Part shown: positions 15,241 to 64,000 of the stretch, piece by piece
How the letters are laid out: every line of letters starts with the position of its first letter
How positions within the stretch are numbered: the first letter of the stretch is position 1
Assembly (NCBI GenBank): GCA_000004985.1
Contig: GG738894.1
Direction: 5' to 3' (one strand)
Length of the DNA stretch: 64,000 nucleotides
From: Naegleria gruberi
Lineage: Eukaryota
Made by a program: the position numbers and the translations under genes
Notes under the pieces: generated by a model
What the model saw: only the letters and a program-made list of their open reading frames with translations
Databases searched by the model: none
What the model was told of the DNA's origin: nothing

Positions 15241-15291
15241 TNNNNNNNNNNNNNNNNNNNNNNNNNNNNNNNNNNNNNNNNNNNNNNNNNN
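15241..15291. other. scaffold gap (51 N) truncating the 3' end of the phospholipase B-like gene
   Basis: Run of N. ORFs spanning it (15236..15640) are artefacts. Confidence 0.95.
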
Positions 15292-26260: not shown

Positions 26261-29200
26261 TCAAAAACTTGGAAATTCTCTTTCCTTTGAAAGAGGAAAA
26301 CAATAAGACAAGTCCAGAAAATAATTATTCAATGGACACTCTAATAAAATAGTTTTTGAGACTTTTTCATTTCGAGATTGCTTGATACGGATAGTAAATC
26401 TTGGGCTTACAATATGTGGCATTTTCTCTTCTTGATTATTGAATAATTTGAAGCAATTCAAATTGAAAAGGCAACATGTATACACAAATGGACTTCTAAT
26501 GAGTGACTTAAATCTTTCTTCAAGATTAAACTCATTGTCGTCCTCTTCTATGTATTGATTGTAGGTATGGAAGAGCCAGTATGCTGCCTTGTGGTTGAGC
26601 TTATCCAAACTGTCTCCATCATGTTTGATAAAGACTTTCTCCCAGTTTATCTTATCTTCTTCAAGGCAATCTTTAATGCTTTCGAATAATTTCTGTTTGT
26701 GTGCTGAGAATTTATCAGAAAGGACAATCTCATCATTTTTTCTGGTTGACCAATAGAGTCTCCATTGTGAATACGCTTCCTTAAATTCATCTTTCCATCT
26801 TTGCCACTCTGAGGAGTATATTTCAGATGGGTTTTCAAAAACAGTGTCAAGTTGCTTTGTATCTGAAAAAACCATCCTATTGAATATATTTCTAATTAGG
26901 TCAAACATTCTTGCTTCGAATGTATCAAGTTCTATATGAGATTGGTCAGTAATCTTCAATTTGCAAAGTTCCATCCACTTTGGAGAATCCTTTTTTGGAA
27001 TTTCATACAACTGTTTAGCATTAAAAGCTGATCCCTTAATAGTATCAATGCTGTCGTGATACATTTTGGACAATTTAAGTTTGATATCTATTCCAACCTT
27101 GGAAGAATCTTCTCTCCAACACATTGTTTTAAGATAAACTTCTGAAATTTTTGATGATTGTTCCATCATTTCCAATACAGTTTTTCTTACATCTTCCATG
27201 CTTAGTGAATTTTTAACAGTTTTGGTCACCTTATTGGTGGCAGCTCCATCGTTATAATTCAATTTTGGTTTGAGATTTTGATCAAATAACTTGACAATTT
27301 CTGGATCGAAAATAATCTCATACAAGTCGCCATCCAAATCACCTCCTGCCATGTAGCATAATGGTTCTGGGACTTTCTTATAATTTGGATTGTGTCCAAA
27401 GACAATGACATCTCTTCTTGATTGGAGGAATTCTGTTGGGGGATGCTTGACCAACTTTAAGCATTGGATATCACCTTCATAGGCAAGAGGATTTCTATAG
27501 ACAAGAACCTTGTCAATTTTAGCATAATCTAAACTTCGAATCAACTTGGAGCATGGGATGTGAACTTCATCATGTTTCAAAGTCGAACTTTCATCATAAA
27601 CACCCATACCACTTAAAAACCCAGGATGTTTACATTTCATACTGAGCTTGTCACTAACCATGGATTCAAACTTGCTTTCAATATTGTCTTTTACAACGGA
27701 GGAAATAAAATAATTATCCAATGAATGTTCAGCCATTATTAAATCTCTAGCAATAGATTCTTGCGAAGTTTCTCCTGATTGAGAGAGGAGCACGTTGCAT
27801 AAATATTCTGGATTATCCTTATTCTCAACAATTTCCATTAATTGAGTTTCGTAAAAATTTTTGAACAATTTTTCCATTTCTTCTTCATTCGTAGTCATTT
27901 GCAGTAAGCAAGACATGATATTTCTATTAATATTGCCACCATGAACACGAGCAACATTCAATATATCAATCTTATTGTAAATTGAATAATTTCCTTCAAA
28001 TTTCACCATTGAATTTCTCAAAATGACTTTGGTATTGGATGGCAATTTGTGCTTTTTAAGTAATTCTGCCCACATTGATTTGTTAACCTTTTGAATGACT
28101 CCTTTGGCTCCCAAAATTCTTACCTGCATGGCACTGATGTTCTTGAAATTCTTTTCGAATAGTCTACCTTGTTTCGTATCTGATTCAAATAACTTGTCCA
28201 TAAAGAAATATGGAACAGAGTAGGTATTTTCCAGGACTTGTTCGAAGAAATCTTCAACAGCCATACCAGCACCATCAGTCACTGCAATATCATCTGAAAT
28301 AATTTGGATATCATCTTGTTTCCATTCCACAATACTTGGAGTACTAGTTCCCATACTCAATCCAACTCTACTAGCAACCTTTCTAGGTCCATGCTCCTCA
28401 GCTTTTTCAAAGGTACCCAACATTTGCTTCAATATTTCCAAATTCAACAATGTTGAGTTGTAAAAGATACAGGAATCACCTTTCAAACCAGAATTTGAAG
28501 TACCTAACAAACAATACTTATGACCTTCATGAACAATACCATAGGAGAGACAATATTCCTTCTTGCATTCTGAGAGTGCTTTCAGATCCTCTTTGGATGT
28601 AAAATCAAATTTTACAACCATTAAACATTTTCCCAAATTCAAACTCATTAAAATTCTTGCTAATCTTGAGAATGAATTCAAGATTGAGTAACGATTGGTT
28701 CCATCACCAATAATCGCATACTTTCCATTGTTTCCCTCCATTTTCTTCCATCTGTTTTTCACATGACAAACTAGTGGATAGAATTCACCAAAGAATTGTT
28801 CGTATCCACCAGCAACATTTGAATTGAAAAGTGATTGAAAAAGAGTTTGATTAGCTTGTGATTCAAACAGTTCCAATTCTCTGGCAAAGTATCTGTATCT
28901 CTTCATCAAGTATTCCAATGGATTCTTTGCTAAATCCATGGTGCTATCACACATATAGGAAATCTTTGCACTCAACTCTGAATATTGAACATTATCTATC
29001 TTGACAACAATCTTCCAAACATTCTTTCCAAAACCAAGAACATTCCAATCTTCCCAGCCGGTGATTGTTTGCAAATCTTCATCTCTCATTGGCAATACAA
29101 TAATCAATTTACCATTAACCNNNNNNNNNNNNNNNNNNNNNNNNNNNNNNNNNNNNNNNNNNNNNNNNNNGTTGATTGCATTAACCAATGTCTTTTGATC

Positions 29201-47404: not shown

Positions 47405-49276
47405 CTAAACGTGGCATCCAAAGTATTGACACTCCATTCTATAATCAAATAAATCTTGGGAAAAAACAAGATAAAATCCATTCGATTTGATTGCTTCCTT
47501 TTGAATTTCCTTGTCGTTTTGGAATTCTTCATCTACTTTTTTCAAAACTGTACCATTTAATCCAACAGCAAGCTTTACGCACTCTATTGAATCCATCATA
47601 CTTTGTGGTAAAAGTGAATATTTGAATCCTTTTTTAAGGAGCTTCATTAGAAACTCCTCGTCATCATAATAGTCAGATTCTATAATGAAGGATATATCAC
47701 TATAATTGTTGGGATTGAAAAATTCGAGGACAAAATCTCTATCATCCGTAAACATTTCAGGTAGCAAGCCAATATCTAGCTCTGCATTTTTCTTTGCTTG
47801 TATTATAAAGTCTCTATCCGTTTTAAGAAGATCATCTGCATAACGTATCATACTTCCATCAGATTTCAGTGCTGCCATTACAACTTCCTTATCAGATTTG
47901 AAAGTGTCTGCCAATTTGATAATTTTGCCAGTGATTGCCAAGCATTTGAATAGGAATTCTCTATCATCCATCAATAATCTAATAGGGATATATCGGTAGA
48001 TAGATGTATTAAATTTCAATGCTTCTAAAATAAAGTCTTTATCGTTTCTCAACCGACTTGTCACAAATTGGAAAGCATTATCTGTTATTGTTATGCATTT
48101 TAACATGTAATCAGAATTGTCTCTGAGCTCCTCACAATCATAAAACTTGTCATGGAGATAGTTTCTTCCTGATACATGCTCATTTTGTAGAATTTGTTGT
48201 ACGGCTTCAATCATGAACTCTCTATCATTCAACAATTTAGGAGAAATATATTGTATTAAATCAATGTCAAAAAGTAGAGACTTGATAGCTAACTCCTTAT
48301 CATCGTTAATATTATTCAATTGATTCTTCATTTTTTCTTTCATTTCATTAAGGATTTCATGTCTTGTTAATGTACCATTCCTGTAAAGCTTAATAGATGT
48401 CGGATTAAATGCAACAATATCCATAATGAAATTCTTGTCAGTACGTAACTCCTCAGGTACCAAGACCATAGCAAACGGTGTTAGCTTGGCCAATTCGAGG
48501 ATAAACTGTCGATCTGATTTCAATTTGCTTCCCACACAAACACATGCCTCAATAGTAAACTTGAATTTCTTGAATAGATTAATCATAAATTTGTAATCAT
48601 TCCTTAAACGTTCAGAAACCCTCATAAAGTCCACCACTCTCACTGTGCCATCACTTGTAATATTCTGAAGAACATGCTCTTCATCATCCAATAATTCTTC
48701 CTCAGAGAAACAAATCCTATTCATAAAATCTGGTAATTCAAATCCATCCACTTCACACGAGCAGTCCTCATCCTGGTTACGGGTACATGTTAACATATTC
48801 GATACAGTTTCCATACTTTTGGCTAGAATGAGCAAACTAGGTTGTTTCGATTCATCTGATAATTTAATAATCCTGTCCATTATTTCAAATAAGAACATTG
48901 GCTTTCTAAGAATTGGATGCAAATTATTGAATAAATCCTCACTCAATTTCAACTTTCCCGAATTCAATGTATGAATAATAAATTCAGCATCCTTACAAAA
49001 TTCAATCGGAATGTACTTTAAAGGATTTTTCATACATTCATATCGATATTCAAACCACTTAATTTTCCCCTTTGTTTGCATTTGAAATTTGTTATAAAGT
49101 AATTGTTGATAATCAACAACATGACAATGATCAGCATCATCACATCTTGTATAAAAATCATTCAATAATAATATTACATTCTCGGAACGATCATCATGAT
49201 TTACGTGTTCGGAATTAAAATTGGCAATTTTACTTGCTGGAAAATCAAAGGATTTGTGATCGGCTTTTCTTTTCAT
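47405..49276 (-). CDS. DUF4116-type repeat protein
   Basis: 623-aa ORF with ATG. C-terminal repeats 'DKDFILEALKFNTSIYRYIPIRLLMDDREFLFKCLAITGKIIKLADTFKSDKEVVMAALKSDGSMIRYADDLLKTDRDFIIQA'. Confidence 0.5.
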   Translation of the reverse strand: MKRKADHKSFDFPASKIANFNSEHVNHDDRSENVILLLNDFYTRCDDADHCHVVDYQQLLYNKFQMQTKGKIKWFEYRYECMKNPLKYIPIEFCKDAEFIIHTLNSGKLKLSEDLFNNLHPILRKPMFLFEIMDRIIKLSDESKQPSLLILAKSMETVSNMLTCTRNQDEDCSCEVDGFELPDFMNRICFSEEELLDDEEHVLQNITSDGTVRVVDFMRVSERLRNDYKFMINLFKKFKFTIEACVCVGSKLKSDRQFILELAKLTPFAMVLVPEELRTDKNFIMDIVAFNPTSIKLYRNGTLTRHEILNEMKEKMKNQLNNINDDKELAIKSLLFDIDLIQYISPKLLNDREFMIEAVQQILQNEHVSGRNYLHDKFYDCEELRDNSDYMLKCITITDNAFQFVTSRLRNDKDFILEALKFNTSIYRYIPIRLLMDDREFLFKCLAITGKIIKLADTFKSDKEVVMAALKSDGSMIRYADDLLKTDRDFIIQAKKNAELDIGLLPEMFTDDRDFVLEFFNPNNYSDISFIIESDYYDDEEFLMKLLKKGFKYSLLPQSMMDSIECVKLAVGLNGTVLKKVDEEFQNDKEIQKEAIKSNGFYLVFSQDLFDYRMECQYFGCHV

Positions 49277-49456
49277 TTTTTTTAATATTAAATGACAGTG
49301 TCAATCCATTTTCGATAATTGAAATTAATCTGTAATCATTCAAAGACTTGAATATTTGAGAAGATGAATGGTGAAATTGTGAATTTGTGAAACGCTTTTG
49401 ATGATTTGGAACAAAGAGTGGATGCATCCATAGTTTAATTTCCACTAACTTAAAAA

Positions 49457-51776
49457 ATGGAACAACTTCAACTAACAATACAAAAGAAGGTAAAATATTA
49501 TTTAACCATTGCAGACAAGAACCTCCACAAACAAATATCGCAAATGGTAGAAAACGGAGGAGGGATTATTGTTGATGATATAGATGCTAACACGATTATA
49601 GTTACTGACGAAAAGGAAAAAAATTTATTTGATCCGACTCAGCATATGCTAATACAAATGTAAGTTTTAATTGCCAAATTGTTCATCTTTAAGTAATAAG
49701 CGTAAGAGAGAAGAGGATGATTTTGTCTCCAACCAATCTGAGAGGNNNNNNNNNNNNNNNNNNNNNNNNNNNNNNNNNNNNNNNNNNNNNNNNNNAAAGT
49801 ATTCGAATTATGTTTCCACCACCATGGCTAAAGAGGATAGTAAAAACTTAAGTACAGCAACGGTTATGTTTATTGGAGATTGTCCAGGTGTAGGGAAGTC
49901 TAGATTTGCATATGAATTACCTGGTTTTTTGAAACATAAATTCAATTCACCACTGAGATATCATTTTGTTAATTTGGCAATTTGGTTCAATTCAGGTTAT
50001 AATCCAACTATTGAAGAAGCAAAAGACAACCTAATTATATCAACTGCAGCAAGAATGATTTTTAGTTACATTACACATGTCAGATCACATAGTTACAATG
50101 GAAAAATTATGGACGAGTTAACAAGTTTGGCTTTTTATAGGGAAATTTATAATGATTTGCAAAGAAGTGTTTATCCTAATGATCAAACACTTGTAAATGT
50201 AATTTCATGGATCATTAGAAGGGAATCTAATTTTACTGATTTGCCTGTTTGGATACATTTAACCATTGATGAATATAACCAAGCATTTCAGTACATAACT
50301 GATATTTCTATAATTGACAATTGGTGTATTGCTATTTCAAACATTCATCAAACTGTTAAATTTAGCCGTGATCTGTTTACTAATTTACTCACAGGTACCC
50401 ATGTTCACACCATGATGAATCTCAAATCTGTAGAGTCTGGAGGAGAAGCATTTCTCTCCAGAATTACAATTTCTAAATTCAACAAGGAAGAAAATTACCT
50501 TCTTTACAAACAAATGAAAATGCCCTACGAAATTAAGTTGTTAAATGCATATCTAACAATGGGAGGACATGCAAGATTATGTGTAGAATTTATCAAAGAA
50601 TATAGAAACACTAAAAGTATTTCAGCTACCCTAAAGGAGCTTCAAAATGTTGTTGGTAATAGGAAACAAGATAGATTTCAACTGAATTTAAATAGAGATG
50701 AAATTGAATTTTTCTTATCTCTCTGTTTCACAGGTATTACCATTTCAAAGGACTATGTTTTTAACTCCACACCAATTTTACAATATCAGAAGAGTAATAT
50801 TGTACTTATGAAACAAATTTCAACTGACCAAATTTTAATAGAGATACCTCTTTTAATAATATCGGTAATGTTAGAGAAATTATCATCATCATCATTTCTA
50901 AACAAACTGGGTAACTCTTTTGAACATTGGGAAACATTCAATGATAATTTTGATAATTTTGAGACATTTAATCAACAACTATTAGAGACAAAGCTAAATT
51001 GTTTCCAAAAGCTAAAAGCATTGAATGTTATTAATGAACCTATTACAATCAAAGATTTATTTACAATAGATGTTGATTTTCATGATTATATAATTCAATT
51101 AGATAACTCCACTTATTCTTCTGTAACACTAGACAAACAGTATCCAATTACCAATGGTATAACTTTAAGTCCTAATATTATTTACAAAAATGGCAAGTCA
51201 GCTCCTTTCGCTGATTTATTTTCATATTTGAAAGTATGTAAACCAGACAAGAGCCAAACCGAATTATTTTGCTATCTACAAGTCAAACATACAAAAAAAC
51301 AAGCTCACATAGGTTTTAAAGATGATATAGAACCTGAATTAAAAAAACTAGAAAATCAAAAAGAAAAGTTATCCAGTGCTCCTATTTTCATGCTTTTTAT
51401 TAGTAACAGACCTCATCTACAAAAACAACCATTGACAAATAATTATACTCAAAAATATAGTGTAATATACTTAGATAATGGAAAGCGTTACTTTAGCCCT
51501 TTTTCTGATTTATTGAACTGCAATATAGGTATTGAGTTACCAATTAAGGAGTTATCTGTTGATAATTTGAAATATATTTTGGGCAGAAGTTGTACAAAAA
51601 GAAAAAGTTTTCATTTCCGAACATTAGTAAGCGCTATTGGGACAGCTAATGAGAATGAAATAGCTACTATACTTGTACAATTCTGTGATGAAGAAATGCT
51701 CAGTAGTATGCTGAGTTTCGTGAAAGAAAAAGAAATAATCAAGGAAGCATTGGCTCTACTGGTACAATCGAATTGA
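49457..51776 (+). CDS. BRCT-like N-terminal exon + novel P-loop NTPase; exons 49457..49663 and 49707..51776; 50-N gap at 49746..49795
   Basis: Exon 1 (MEQLQL…KKVKYYLTIADKNLHKQISQMVENGGGIIVDDIDANTIIVTDEKEK…) has a BRCT-like pattern and ends ATG|GTAAGT. The 43-nt intron ends …AATAAG. Exon 2 is in frame (RKREEDDFVSNQSER…). Walker A 'VMFIGDCPGVGKSRFAY' and Walker-B-like 'VWIHLTIDEYNQAF'. Long C-terminal region without recognisable repeats. Confidence 0.5.
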
Positions 51777-52428: not shown

Positions 52429-53313
52429 ATGCTATCACAACAAACTAAACACTTTGCTAAGAGATCCTCTAGTGCCATCTTAGCCTATCAACAATTACTC
52501 AACAATTCCTTTAAACTTTCCCATACAGCTCAAACAGTTTCCAATAAATGGGATCATCAACCTTCGGATAAACCAATGTTTACAAAGGACATGGTTCTAG
52601 ATCATTACAAGGCACACATTCCTCTTGCCCAAACTAAATTCCGTGGCTATGGAACAGATGGAATCCACACAAATGTTGAAGAATTAGAAAAATTCGAAGT
52701 CAAACGATCATACAAACCAGTTGACTTGACTGATAAGACAGCTCTTGCAATTATGAAGTTTTTGAGAGTTTTCGTCCATGGATTCTTTGGAAATCGTTAC
52801 ATTCACCATGCAGTTGTCTTGGAAACAGTCGCAGCAGTTCCTGGTATCGTTGCAGGTGGCTGGAGACATTTCAGTTCATTGAGATTGATGAGAAGAGATC
52901 ATGGACATATTGGAGAATTAATGGAAGAAGCTGAGAATGAAAGAATGCACTTGTTAACATGGATGGAAATGACAAAACCAACCTTCCTGGAAAGATTACT
53001 GGTTGTGGGAGCTCAAGTTGCCTTTACTTCATTTTACACTGGTGCCTATTTTGTAAATCCAAGATTTTGTCATCGTTTGGTTGGATATTTGGAAGAGGAA
53101 GCAGTGGGTGCCTATACTGAATTTTTGAATGCTATTGATAATGGAGACATTCCAAATTGTAAAGCTCCAGAAATTGCATTGAAATATTGGAATTTGAAAC
53201 CAGATGCAACAATGAGAGATGTTGTATTGGTAATTAGAGGTGATGAATGTATGCACAGAGATTACAATCATGACATGTCTGATAAACATAGAGCAGGAGT
53301 TGAAGGTCAATAA
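52429..53313 (+). CDS. AOX: alternative oxidase (mitochondrial, di-iron)
   Basis: 294-aa ORF with ATG. Basic/hydroxylated presequence-like N-terminus. Di-iron ligand motifs 'LETVAAVPG', 'ENERMHLLT', 'YLEEEAVGAY', 'RGDECMHRDYNH'. Confidence 0.8.
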   Translation: MLSQQTKHFAKRSSSAILAYQQLLNNSFKLSHTAQTVSNKWDHQPSDKPMFTKDMVLDHYKAHIPLAQTKFRGYGTDGIHTNVEELEKFEVKRSYKPVDLTDKTALAIMKFLRVFVHGFFGNRYIHHAVVLETVAAVPGIVAGGWRHFSSLRLMRRDHGHIGELMEEAENERMHLLTWMEMTKPTFLERLLVVGAQVAFTSFYTGAYFVNPRFCHRLVGYLEEEAVGAYTEFLNAIDNGDIPNCKAPEIALKYWNLKPDATMRDVVLVIRGDECMHRDYNHDMSDKHRAGVEGQ

Positions 53314-53338: not shown

Positions 53339-55216
53339 TCATTTCCAAAATCTTTTAATAATAAACTCCATAATTTCTCTATCAAAATAAAACTTCTCTG
53401 GTAAACGTGATAAATCTAATGAATTCTTAATTGCTACCATTACTATTTCTCTACAATATTTTAATTGTTTTGCGTACTGAAGTGCATTACCATTTTGTTG
53501 AACTGCCTCCATTACAATAGAGAAAGTATTAAGCAATTTCTTGTTAGCATGGACGAGTGCCATACCATTTTCTTTTACTGCTTCTTGAACTATTTCTCTA
53601 TCTTTTCTTAAACTGTGTGAAACAAACGCCAAAGTACTACCATTCAATTTGACAGCTAATAGTGCTATTTCTCTATCATTTTTTAGCAAATTCTTCGACG
53701 CATATCTAAGAGATTCCGGAGAATTTTTGATTGCAGCACTTACCACTTCTCTATTATTTTTCACCTCTTCGGATGCATATTGAAGGGCAAGTCCATTTTG
53801 GTTGACTGCTTTCATTACAATATCAAAATCGTTTCTCAATTCTTCACTGGCGAATCTAAGTGCACATCCGTCTTTACTGATAGCAGGTATAATTACTTCT
53901 CTATCATTTTGCAATATTTTTGATATGATTTTCAGTGCATTGCTATTTTGTTGAACAGCAATCATTGCAATTTCCTTATCATTTTTGAAGAACTCATTAA
54001 GTGCAATACCACAATTTTTCACAGCTAAAATTGCAAATTCTCGATCTTTCTGTAATTCATTTGATACATAGATAAAAGCTGCTCCATTCTTCGTTACAGT
54101 TTCTCTTACAATATCTCTATTGTTTTTCAATTCATCAGATGCATATTGAATGGCATAACTATTTTGTCTGACAGCTGCCATTACAACGTTGTAATCATTT
54201 TTCAATTTATCTGAAGCATACTGGAGTGCATATCCATCTTGCATGACAGCTGTTAGAACTATTTCTTTGTCATTTTTTAATTGCTCTGAACAGTGAGTTA
54301 GCATAGATCCACTCCTCTTAACTGCTTCTAAAATTATTTCTCTATCGTTTTTCAATGCTATATAACCTAACATATTTGGATTATTCTGAATGGATTTCAT
54401 AACTATTTCTCTATCATTTTTAAATTCATGGGAAAACGGAATGTTTTTACAATACGGAATTGAGAAAAGAATTAGTTCTCTATCATTTTGTAATTCTTTA
54501 GATGCAAACCGCAATGTAATAGGAAAGGTCATCATTGCTTGTTTAACAATTTCTCTGTCGTTTTTAAAATCAGAATTAAGGGATATGATTTCTGAGCCAT
54601 TATTCATAACTACTTGCATGGCCATTTCTCTATCATTTTCAAATTGTGGAAAGTCATGTAATTTCATTCCATATGTTTTTATAATATTCAGAACAATGGC
54701 TCTATTTTGTTTCATTCTTATAGGTATTGAATGAATATCAAGTAGACGTTTATCAATGCTCTTCATGACAAATAATTCATTACTCCATAACTTTAATGCT
54801 TTCAATATTAGACGAATAGGACGATATTCAATTTTTAATAAATTCAAAACAGTTTCAAATACATAAAATCCATCACGTTTTAGATCAATTCCAGAATGGA
54901 GAAAATCAATATCATCCTCATCATCCGAATGTTCATATTCCTCTTCCTCCTCCTCCTCATTATCATCACTATCATCCTCATTATCATCCATTCTACTAAT
55001 ATTCCGAATCTTGTACCATCTTTTCATAAACTCTAAAAGATATGGTGCAAATATCGTTTCGAATTTATCTTTAACGTCTGCAATTTTCTTCATTAATAAT
55101 TTGGATTCAAATGACAAATCCAAGTAAACTTGCACCTGTTCTGATGATTGGAGGAATTTACCTTTCTTAATGTGATTGGACATGAGGAAGTGATCATTTA
55201 GATGATTTCTCTTCAT
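53339..55216 (-). CDS. DUF4116-type repeat protein (about 12 tandem repeats) with acidic stretch
   Basis: ATG at 55216 (MKRNHLNDHF…). The earlier ORF-track start overlaps the neighbouring gene antisense. Repeats 'LKNDKEIVLTAVMQDGYALQYASDKLKNDYNVVMAAVRQNSYAIQYASDELKNNRDIV…'. Acidic 'DDNEDDSDDNEEEEEEEYEHSDDEDD'. Confidence 0.55.
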   Translation of the reverse strand: MKRNHLNDHFLMSNHIKKGKFLQSSEQVQVYLDLSFESKLLMKKIADVKDKFETIFAPYLLEFMKRWYKIRNISRMDDNEDDSDDNEEEEEEEYEHSDDEDDIDFLHSGIDLKRDGFYVFETVLNLLKIEYRPIRLILKALKLWSNELFVMKSIDKRLLDIHSIPIRMKQNRAIVLNIIKTYGMKLHDFPQFENDREMAMQVVMNNGSEIISLNSDFKNDREIVKQAMMTFPITLRFASKELQNDRELILFSIPYCKNIPFSHEFKNDREIVMKSIQNNPNMLGYIALKNDREIILEAVKRSGSMLTHCSEQLKNDKEIVLTAVMQDGYALQYASDKLKNDYNVVMAAVRQNSYAIQYASDELKNNRDIVRETVTKNGAAFIYVSNELQKDREFAILAVKNCGIALNEFFKNDKEIAMIAVQQNSNALKIISKILQNDREVIIPAISKDGCALRFASEELRNDFDIVMKAVNQNGLALQYASEEVKNNREVVSAAIKNSPESLRYASKNLLKNDREIALLAVKLNGSTLAFVSHSLRKDREIVQEAVKENGMALVHANKKLLNTFSIVMEAVQQNGNALQYAKQLKYCREIVMVAIKNSLDLSRLPEKFYFDREIMEFIIKRFWK

Positions 55217-55265
55217 TTTTTTTAATATTGTAAAGATGTTTAATAAACATTTCATATTATAAAAA

Positions 55266-55739
55266 ATGCCTCCACGTAAAAGCACCCGATCTTCAGCATC
55301 ATCGTCTTCATCTTCTACGGGGAACACTACCAAGAAACAAACCAAACTTATTCCGCCACCACAACCTCCATCATCAATGTTTTTACCACCTCCACAACCG
55401 AGACTCATTCATCATCAAAATAATTCATCTCTTGGACCAACTCCATCACCTGTTCCGACACGTGGAGATCCATTATTAGCTTTGGCTGGTATTGCTGATA
55501 ATGAACTGAGTGATTTAATGTATGAAGAAGTCACTGAAATGATTCTACAAAAAACAAAAGGAAAATCAAATGTGGAACAAGCAGCCTTTATGAGACAATT
55601 ATTGGAAGGAACAGATTTTAAAAAAGATTTTGAGAGAAGGATGGAACGCAAATTTCCAGTGTTGGATAATATTTTGAATGGAAAAATTAAATTAGAAAAG
55701 AAGCAAGACTTGGTGGAAATGGAAATTATTGATGATTAA
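55266..55739 (+). CDS. hypothetical small protein, S/P-rich N-terminus and helical C-terminus
   Basis: 157-aa ORF with ATG; no recognised motif. Confidence 0.35.
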   Translation: MPPRKSTRSSASSSSSSTGNTTKKQTKLIPPPQPPSSMFLPPPQPRLIHHQNNSSLGPTPSPVPTRGDPLLALAGIADNELSDLMYEEVTEMILQKTKGKSNVEQAAFMRQLLEGTDFKKDFERRMERKFPVLDNILNGKIKLEKKQDLVEMEIIDD

Positions 55740-63551: not shown

Positions 63552-64000
63552 NNNNNNNNNNNNNNNNNNNNNNNNNNNNNNNNNNNNNNNNNNNNNNNNN
63601 NNNNNNNNNNNNNNNNNNNNNNNNNNNNNNNNNNNNNNNNNNNNNNNNNNNNNNNNNNNNNNNNNNNNNNNNNNNNNNNNNNNNNNNNNNNNNNNNNNNN
63701 NNNNNNNNNNNNNNNNNNNNNNNNNNNNNNNNNNNNNNNNNNNNNNNNNNNNNNNNNNNNNNNNNNNNNNNNNNNNNNNNNNNNNNNNNNNNNNNNNNNN
63801 NNNNNNNNNNNNNNNNNNNNNNNNNNNNNNNNNNNNNNNNNNNNNNNNNNNNNNNNNNNNNNNNNNNNNNNNNNNNNNNNNNNNNNNNNNNNNNNNNNNN
63901 NNNNNNNNNNNNNNNNNNNNNNNNNNNNNNNNNNNNNNNNNNNNNNNNNNNNNNNNNNNNNNNNNNNNNNNNNNNNNNNNNNNNNNNNNNNNNNNNNNNN
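63552..64000. other. scaffold gap (449 N)
   Basis: Run of N to window end. Confidence 0.95.

Follow-up and report, generated by a model that had tools for sequence, protein, structure and literature searches.

The 64,000-nt stretch of Naegleria gruberi contig GG738894.1 analysed here (GenBank assembly GCA_000004985.1; referred to below as the window) contains, at positions 49457 to 51776, a P-loop gene whose body is very probably a member of the Crinkler-type module, in which a nucleoside triphosphatase (NTPase), a helix-turn-helix (HTH) domain and a restriction endonuclease (REase)-like core follow one another in a single polypeptide. The public record for this locus is a 650-residue "predicted protein [Naegleria gruberi]" (P0001), to which the translation of window 49824-51773 is 100 % identical, and what had been a hypothetical protein lacking a Pfam match can now be placed in the Crinkler-type NTPase-HTH-REase family. 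The locus is likely to be one N. gruberi gene of ~900 codons, encoding in order a BRCT-like exon, a short charged linker, one or two helical, Heterolobosea-specific repeats, an ATPase with its winged helix, the REase-like nuclease core and a helical tail. An assembly gap interrupts the N-terminal part. The features of the gene are as follows.

49457..49659, plus strand: exon 1, ATG plus 67 codons and 2 bases, encoding a BRCT-like beta-alpha-beta-beta unit (MEQLQLTIQKKVKYYLTIADKNLHKQISQMVENGGGIIVDDIDANTIIVTDEKEKNLFDPTQHMLIQ)
49660..49708, plus strand: predicted intron, with the donor GTAAGT at 49660 and an acceptor AG ending at 49708 or at 49693
49709..49745, plus strand: start of exon 2, an acidic/basic linker (EEDDFVSNQSER) that runs into the gap
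49746..49795, no strand: 50-N placeholder gap, in place of the rest of the N-terminal region (repeat copies and the linker to the ATPase, as predicted)
49796..50693, plus strand: P-loop ATPase domain and helical lid, ORC/Cdc6/TnsC/STAND-like, with LLTGTH and GGHAR motifs after Walker B
49875-49901, plus strand: Walker A, GDCPGVGKS, conserved in homologues
50250-50276, plus strand: Walker B, WIHLTIDEY, conserved in homologues
50694..50879, plus strand: winged helix (HTH), about residues 291-352 of P0001, from an AlphaFold2 (AF2) model and Foldseek
50919..51467, plus strand: predicted PD-(D/E)xK-type nuclease core, from motifs, AF2 topology and homology to the Crinkler-family region
50961-50963 (E380), 51213-51215 (D464) and 51279-51287 (Q486-V-K488), plus strand: candidate catalytic residues, from conservation and the model
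51468..51776, plus strand: C-terminal helical tail (residues 549-650, aligned with the HhH position of relatives) and TGA stop

HMMER, run exhaustively over 1.84 billion representatives, recovered 22 relatives of the protein, and a word-indexed search with a 10-sequence alignment added only one more, P0023. Among these, P0015 (Haplosporangium KAF9197305.1) has a Pfam Crinkler N-terminal domain (E 4.2e-15) together with a P-loop, the D..QxK motif and a C-terminal helix-hairpin-helix (HhH), and P0017 (Rozella EPZ30828.1) bears the UniRef name "Crinkler (CRN) family protein"; further relatives are found in Rhizophagus irregularis (P0021), N. lovaniensis (P0016) and N. fowleri (P0018). Alignment by hhalign of the N. 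gruberi/Willaertia subfamily with the Crinkler-type relatives (99.7 %, E 3.7e-27, 486 columns) extends from before Walker A to past the last conserved C-terminal motif, and the motifs shared with the family include PGxGKSRF, GNG, IDExN, LxGT, GGxxR, ExFN, NGxxAPFxD, hhhhQxK and YYG. Two published accounts (PMC5289972, PMC11064341), both of which refer to Zhang et al. 2016, assign to most Phytophthora CRN C-termini an NTPase + HTH + REase arrangement in which the REase accounts for toxicity and the NTPase for regulation, and the order of P-loop NTPase, winged helix/HTH and REase-like core in the Crinkler C-terminal module is the same as in the N. gruberi protein. A preliminary description of this DNA had presented a novel P-loop NTPase of no known family, a view displaced by the homology of the whole body to the Crinkler NTPase-HTH-REase module (hhalign and HMMER; PMC5289972). 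Searches of Pfam, NCBIfam and the PDB with P0001 and P0002 gave no significant match (best Pfam E 0.013, far below threshold).

P0002, an 830-residue protein of Willaertia magna with 37 % identity, is the only close relative of P0001; N. fowleri and N. lovaniensis yielded no closer orthologue, and the neighbourhood of the Willaertia orthologue is not syntenic with the N. gruberi locus. Three metagenome fragments, P0003 (ENA, 2448-nt contig), P0004 (JGI, 1499-nt contig) and P0019 (ENA), are ~31-35 % identical to P0001 and show the P0001/P0002 subfamily to be present in further uncultured organisms, presumably heteroloboseans.

The Walker A and Walker B motifs, which had been noted before (the latter as a Walker-B-like hhhhDE), are invariant between P0001 and P0002, and GxGKS and IDE are common to all aligned family members that cover those regions. 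The long ORF (open reading frame) that contains them runs, as described earlier, to its stop, a TGA at 51774-51776 in the ORF map. The ~550 residues following the P-loop had been reported as without recognised features; a winged helix and a nuclease-like core are in fact predicted there. In the AF2 model of P0001 (predicted local distance difference test (pLDDT) 70.4, predicted template modelling score (pTM) 0.57) the winged helix comprises helices 291-303 and 318-324 and strands 306-308, 328-331 and 336-340, with pLDDT 83-90 over most of its length, and Foldseek aligns 365-400 columns of the model to Paby2304, ORC1/Cdc6, RdrA, Apaf-1 and NLRC4, covering ATPase, lid and winged helix. Residues 379-548 are modelled (pLDDT 84-91) as helix(E380)-strand-strand(D464)-strand(Q486-x-K488)-helix-strand, with D464 opening beta2 and Q486-x-K488 lying within beta3, a topology that in the model corresponds to the canonical PD-(D/E)xK layout. 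Of ten family members examined, nine have both NGxxAPFxD and hhhhQxK and one, P0023, has NGxxAPFxD without hhhhQxK; ExFN is found in seven of the eight members that include that stretch. HHH_3/HHH_6 matches occur in P0015, P0016 and P0022 and not in P0001, and the N. gruberi tail has no hairpin motif at the HhH position (alignment columns 1100-1200); the C-terminal HhH of many relatives is lost in N. gruberi.

Strictly speaking, the N. gruberi protein falls outside the Crinkler effectors, since the header that defines them is absent: no Pfam match to the Crinkler header (PF20147) was obtained in exon 1, the spliced N-terminus or P0001, in the same scan that finds the header in P0015. Crinkler effectors have a ubiquitin-like (Ubl) header and an LxLFLAK-type motif, whereas the N. 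gruberi protein has neither and starts instead with the BRCT-like exon and heterolobosean ~50-residue repeats; and whereas Crinkler effectors are delivered, N. gruberi is a free-living amoeba and its protein is probably intracellular. The ATPase-winged helix-nuclease body is already known as a module, and the N-terminal variant is lineage-specific. This adds to the family a free-living heterolobosean member without an effector header and bears on the persistence of toxin-derived modules in non-pathogens (compare PMC12957317).

In the model the N. gruberi protein has the ATPase-lid-winged-helix arrangement of ORC/Cdc6, but sequence identity to ORC/Cdc6, Tn7 TnsC, Mu MuB and BREX BrxC is only 6-16 %, with no match at the sequence level in the PDB or Pfam, and none of these has an REase core fused in the same polypeptide. 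STAND NTPases (Apaf-1, NLRC4, MalT, Avs3) have the NTPase-helical-winged-helix core in common with it, although the matches are weaker than those to ORC/Cdc6, and the placing of an N-terminal adaptor before a central NTPase is also STAND-like. The C-termini differ: that of STAND NTPases is a repeat sensor, that of the N. gruberi protein a nuclease-like core and helical tail, and a Pfam scan of P0001 for C-terminal sensor repeats (TPR, WD40, LRR and similar) returned no repeat family. The STAND analogy drawn earlier therefore holds for the ATPase-winged-helix core and fails at the C-terminus, and the three-part layout proposed with it (an interaction module, a P-loop and a large C-terminal region) gives way to one of BRCT-like exon, twin repeats, ATPase, winged helix and nuclease.

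At the 5′ end, the ATG at 49457 opens a 68-codon ORF (49457-49663 in the ORF map). Every GT..AG pair was enumerated as a splice model and its frame was then checked in L002, an 800-nt ENA metagenome contig that matches window 49141-49745 at ~98 % identity and reaches a further 198 nt into the gap. The sole strong donor is the GTAAGT at 49660, which overlaps the stop codon of the ORF (...CAA AT followed by GTAAGT), and a frame that stays open in L002 is reached by two acceptors only: 49693 (34-nt intron), giving ...LIQ-I-NKRKREEDD... with the residues NKRKR kept, and 49708 (49-nt intron), giving ...LIQ-I-EEDD.... The canonical 43-nt intron proposed previously, with its junction at 49663/49707, had to be given up, since the in-frame TAA (49661-49663) stays in exon 1 and no continuous protein is possible; pairing GTAAGT with an acceptor at 49706 instead yields a frame that terminates in L002 (MILSPTNLRGKRP followed by a stop). 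That the first exon is spliced to the P-loop gene is nonetheless very probable, as the exon-2 frame, followed from 49671 through the repeat hidden in the gap (with L002 included), stays open and contains no ATG, so that an upstream coding exon is needed, and the ORF is intact in a second genome.

A search with the exon-1 peptide found a single database relative, P0024 (68 residues, 93 % identical), encoded on L002. Between exon 1 (49457-49659) and L002 314-516 there are eight substitutions in 203 nt, three synonymous and five conservative, and no indel, whereas the flanks show one substitution in 397 nt and two indels, of 1 nt and 4 nt, that lie in the intergenic spacer; the substitution rate is higher in exon 1 (Fisher p = 0.001). 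Given its substitution pattern and the lack of indels, exon 1 behaves as a quickly evolving coding sequence, and this hot spot may stem from rapid or diversifying evolution in the N-terminal module. On these comparisons it is quite probable that exon 1 belongs to the same mRNA as the ATPase-nuclease body.

The preliminary description correctly noted a 50-N gap just after the splice, which lies at 49746-49795, but took it to remove ~17 codons. All three internal gaps of the window (15242-15291, 29121-29170 and 49746-49795) are exactly 50 N, which identifies them as placeholders that give neither the true length nor the frame of the missing sequence; gene models crossing 15242-15291 and 29121-29170 may be truncated likewise, and the window itself ends in a 449-N run (63552-64000). 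In L002 the exon-2 frame ...EEDDFVSNQSER goes on as KKTIKQHEQNFILNPTKFEQWTKEQVTSLLSTEQEKGGAGLTVEKIKPLYDEGFDGTCIANIVSFI, which puts the hidden part at 66 codons or more, and the Willaertia locus, where ~213 codons separate the start of the repeat from the point matching window 49800, indicates that the number is probably ~200. The hidden segment is predicted to consist of one or two copies of a ~50-residue heterolobosean repeat and the linker to the ATPase. From 49800, immediately after the gap and upstream of the annotated Met at 49824, the sequence resembles that of the Willaertia protein (KYSNYVSTTMAKEDSK vs DYCKYVDDTLAGRDLK), so the annotated model is truncated at its N-terminus; owing to the gap, the public N. 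gruberi model is short of ~250-300 N-terminal residues, among them a whole domain. A scan of JGI metagenomes for an ungapped copy, using a degenerate P-loop pattern, gave only GC-rich chance matches such as PEP (phosphoenolpyruvate) carboxykinase. The corrected gene model, the whole domain inside the gap and the occurrence of the same twin-repeat N-terminus on several ATPase bodies in Heterolobosea are new here.

The repeat has the consensus LxPxxYxxWxxEQVxSxLCxxxxxGGAGLxxExVKPLYDAGFxGxSLxxIV and stands in two or three copies at the N-terminus of the Willaertia orthologue, of proteins from several paralogue families in Willaertia, and of XP_002678636.1 of N. gruberi, XP_044553883.1 of N. lovaniensis and XP_044560805.1 of N. 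fowleri. A profile built from 28 instances defines the repeat; no match to it was obtained in Pfam, and the repeat profile finds in the PDB only a weak match to the SAM domain of liprin-beta (E 0.4, 16 residues). In Willaertia and Naegleria at least three body types carry the twin repeat: the Crinkler-type NTPase-REase, an AAA_22-type, and that of P0010/P0014. Compared with the Crinkler-type profile, the body of the twin-repeat protein P0011 matches at 99.1 % and those of P0005, P0008, P0010 and P0014 do not. XP_044553883.1 (P0016), XP_044560805.1 (P0018) and W. magna KAL9658781.1 (P0011) share with the N. gruberi protein both the twin repeats and the Crinkler-type NTPase-REase body, but they form a different subfamily (16-19 % identity to P0001) and none has the BRCT-like exon; a sub-threshold, weak HhH match is kept in P0016, and none was detected in P0018 or P0011.

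That several ATPase families in Naegleria and Willaertia have the twin-repeat N-terminus in common may point to a modular system peculiar to the lineage, though not to a new mechanism. We offer only as speculation that the twin repeat is a heterolobosean 'header' placed on several ATPase bodies, the counterpart of the Crinkler Ubl header, within a conflict or immunity system in which N. gruberi would have gained a fast-evolving, BRCT-derived exon; if this is true, free-living amoebae would possess a polymorphic system of this kind inside the cell, defined by the header.

Two further observations concern the repeat proteins. The frame of the W. magna orthologue (JBEGDK010000129.1; L001 6226-6560) shifts by +1 within the first repeat, reading ...SPKEVKPLYDAGFRGSFTL and then, in frame +1, SLCVIVTDIQKAGEKHAYTELCSINDIKHIPQITLKIVVSWVDNLLK..., caused by a sequencing error or else by an inactivating mutation, and the NCBI model P0002 bridges the shift by a false 145-nt 'intron' that deletes real domain sequence. 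Most of the twin-repeat paralogues (among P0005-P0011, P0020 and P0025) have basic, Ser/Thr-rich, acid-free N-termini that by eye resemble mitochondrial presequences (e.g. MSSRLSRFNFKAVGKTLKSPTKK, MVRISKVVKTTRGLAKF), and the proteins of the P0001 gene and its Willaertia orthologue have, also by eye, no presequence-like N-terminus.

Exon 1 had been described as BRCT-type over its 68 residues, and this stands only in part. The peptide matches Pfam BRCT_2 (PF16589) at E 7.7e-5 and 23.4 bits over profile positions 7-57 of 86, and the score stays under the Pfam gathering cut-off of 27.3 bits in the N. gruberi version, the metagenome version and both spliced models alike (22.7-24.1 bits, E 4.5e-5 to 1.2e-4). 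Its AF2 model is strand-helix-strand-strand at low confidence (pLDDT 55). The beta1-alpha1-GG-beta2-beta3 pattern of BRCT domains is also found in exon 1, but a BRCT domain is a complete beta1-alpha1-beta2-beta3-alpha2-beta4-alpha3 fold with a Trp, and exon 1 has the first half only: the conserved alpha3 Trp was not found in it, the alpha2-beta4-alpha3 half is missing, and the residues after the splice form an acidic linker. "BRCT-like" is therefore a reasonable label, and membership in the BRCT family is not established. Neither the Willaertia orthologue locus nor any of the paralogues has a counterpart of exon 1. An origin of the exon as a diverged copy of the ~50-residue repeat, suggested by a local blastp match to P0012 (ENGGG vs ENGGAG), was rejected, as the 28-instance repeat profile scores ~0 bits.

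The N-terminus of the protein (MEQLQLTIQKKVKYY) has, by eye, no hydrophobic core and no signal peptide, and a basic KRKR patch is present in one splice model and in Willaertia. Taken together these lead us to expect that the protein acts inside the amoeba, and its place of action is probably the nucleus. We envisage that, by binding and hydrolysing ATP, the ATPase (Walker A Lys25, Walker B Asp149-Glu150 and Arg251) would control oligomerisation or the engagement of DNA through the winged helix, that this cycle would permit the nuclease core (E380, D464 and Q486-x-K488) to cleave DNA, and that the N-terminal BRCT-like unit and repeats would serve as adaptor, interaction or targeting modules. 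The most likely role would be in biological conflict, as defence against invading DNA or viruses or as a selfish or toxin-like element, rather than in housekeeping. An ATP-regulated intracellular DNA nuclease acting in biological conflict is our tentative proposal, somewhat short of an even chance, put forward because the distribution in Naegleria and Willaertia is patchy, the orthologues are non-syntenic and the relatives are of effector type.

Several points weigh against this picture. The biological role is purely inferred, PADLOC defence-system models gave no match, and the missing Ubl header limits the analogy with secreted effectors. The nuclease motif has a Gln in place of the canonical Asp/Glu, so that catalytic competence is predicted only, and a profile of the REase region found no significant sequence match in Pfam or the PDB. 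The AF2 model of P0001 is moderate in quality and disordered at 194-235. At the 5′ end the splice is a prediction that the 34-nt and 49-nt introns fit equally, and continuity across the gap is reconstructed from the second genome and from Willaertia, not read in the N. gruberi genome. Flanking repeats that would suggest mobility were not found around the gene; a search for transposon-like terminal repeats there saw only internal repeats of the neighbouring DUF4116 genes.

The gene structure has an alternative of its own, in which the 68-codon ORF is a small gene in its own right, an upstream ORF or a product of chance, and a separate ATPase-nuclease gene starts within the gap or at Met 49824. 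The public annotation indeed begins at 49824, exon 1 has no homologue at the Willaertia locus, the gap blocks a direct reading of the join, which is deduced from sequence, and the AT-rich window (~30-35 % GC) contains chance ORFs of 50-77 codons. Against a chance ORF, however, speak the BRCT_2 match (E 7.7e-5) and the survival of all 68 codons through eight substitutions while indels fell only in intergenic DNA; and two genes would not account for a consensus donor that overlaps the ORF's stop codon, for an open exon-2 frame that lacks an ATG and enters a domain common to the orthologue, or for Willaertia similarity that reaches upstream of Met 49824 to the gap edge. We consider two genes unlikely, and retain a single spliced gene.

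How such a gene is used could also be read differently. The protein might be a degenerating or domesticated remnant, a pseudogene or non-catalytic scaffold that has lost its nuclease and perhaps its ATPase activity, as could be suspected from the Gln that replaces the acidic residue of (D/E)xK, the loss in N. gruberi of the HhH of relatives, the +1 frameshift in the N-terminal repeat of the Willaertia orthologue, and the small size and patchy distribution of the family. However, nine of the ten members examined, among them Crinkler-header proteins, have the Gln, which makes it a family feature rather than a sign of decay; N. gruberi retains intact Walker A and Walker B motifs as well as D464 and K488, the 37 % identity to Willaertia is spread over the full length, and an unbroken 650-codon ORF at ~30 % GC cannot persist without selection, making a remnant quite unlikely. 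A housekeeping factor of the DNA-damage response or repair, in which a genuine BRCT domain recruits the ATPase-nuclease to phosphorylated chromatin proteins, would accord with the BRCT_2 match (E 4.5e-5 to 1.2e-4), which the metagenome version gives as well as that of N. gruberi, with a KRKR patch compatible with nuclear import, and with winged-helix and nuclease domains that act on DNA. We think this very unlikely, as the BRCT match is sub-threshold and covers the first half of the fold, without the Trp or alpha3, the exon is absent from the Willaertia orthologue and all paralogues, and a housekeeping gene should be present in N. fowleri and N. lovaniensis as well, where no closer orthologue was found.

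The gene lies between two DUF4116-repeat genes, with an alternative oxidase gene directly downstream:

47405-49276, minus strand: DUF4116-repeat gene, the divergently transcribed upstream neighbour
49277..49456, no strand: intergenic spacer between exon 1 and the divergent DUF4116 gene, presumed to hold the promoter and 5′ untranslated region
52429-53313, plus strand: intact alternative oxidase gene (Pfam AOX, E 1.9e-78), directly downstream of the ATPase-nuclease gene
53339-55408, minus strand: DUF4116-repeat gene, downstream neighbour

The two flanking DUF4116 genes have in common a 24-nt sequence, TTTCT(T/C)TTCATTTTTTTTAATATT, around their start codons (49266-49289 and 55206-55229), suggesting that they are paralogues with a conserved 5′ end.

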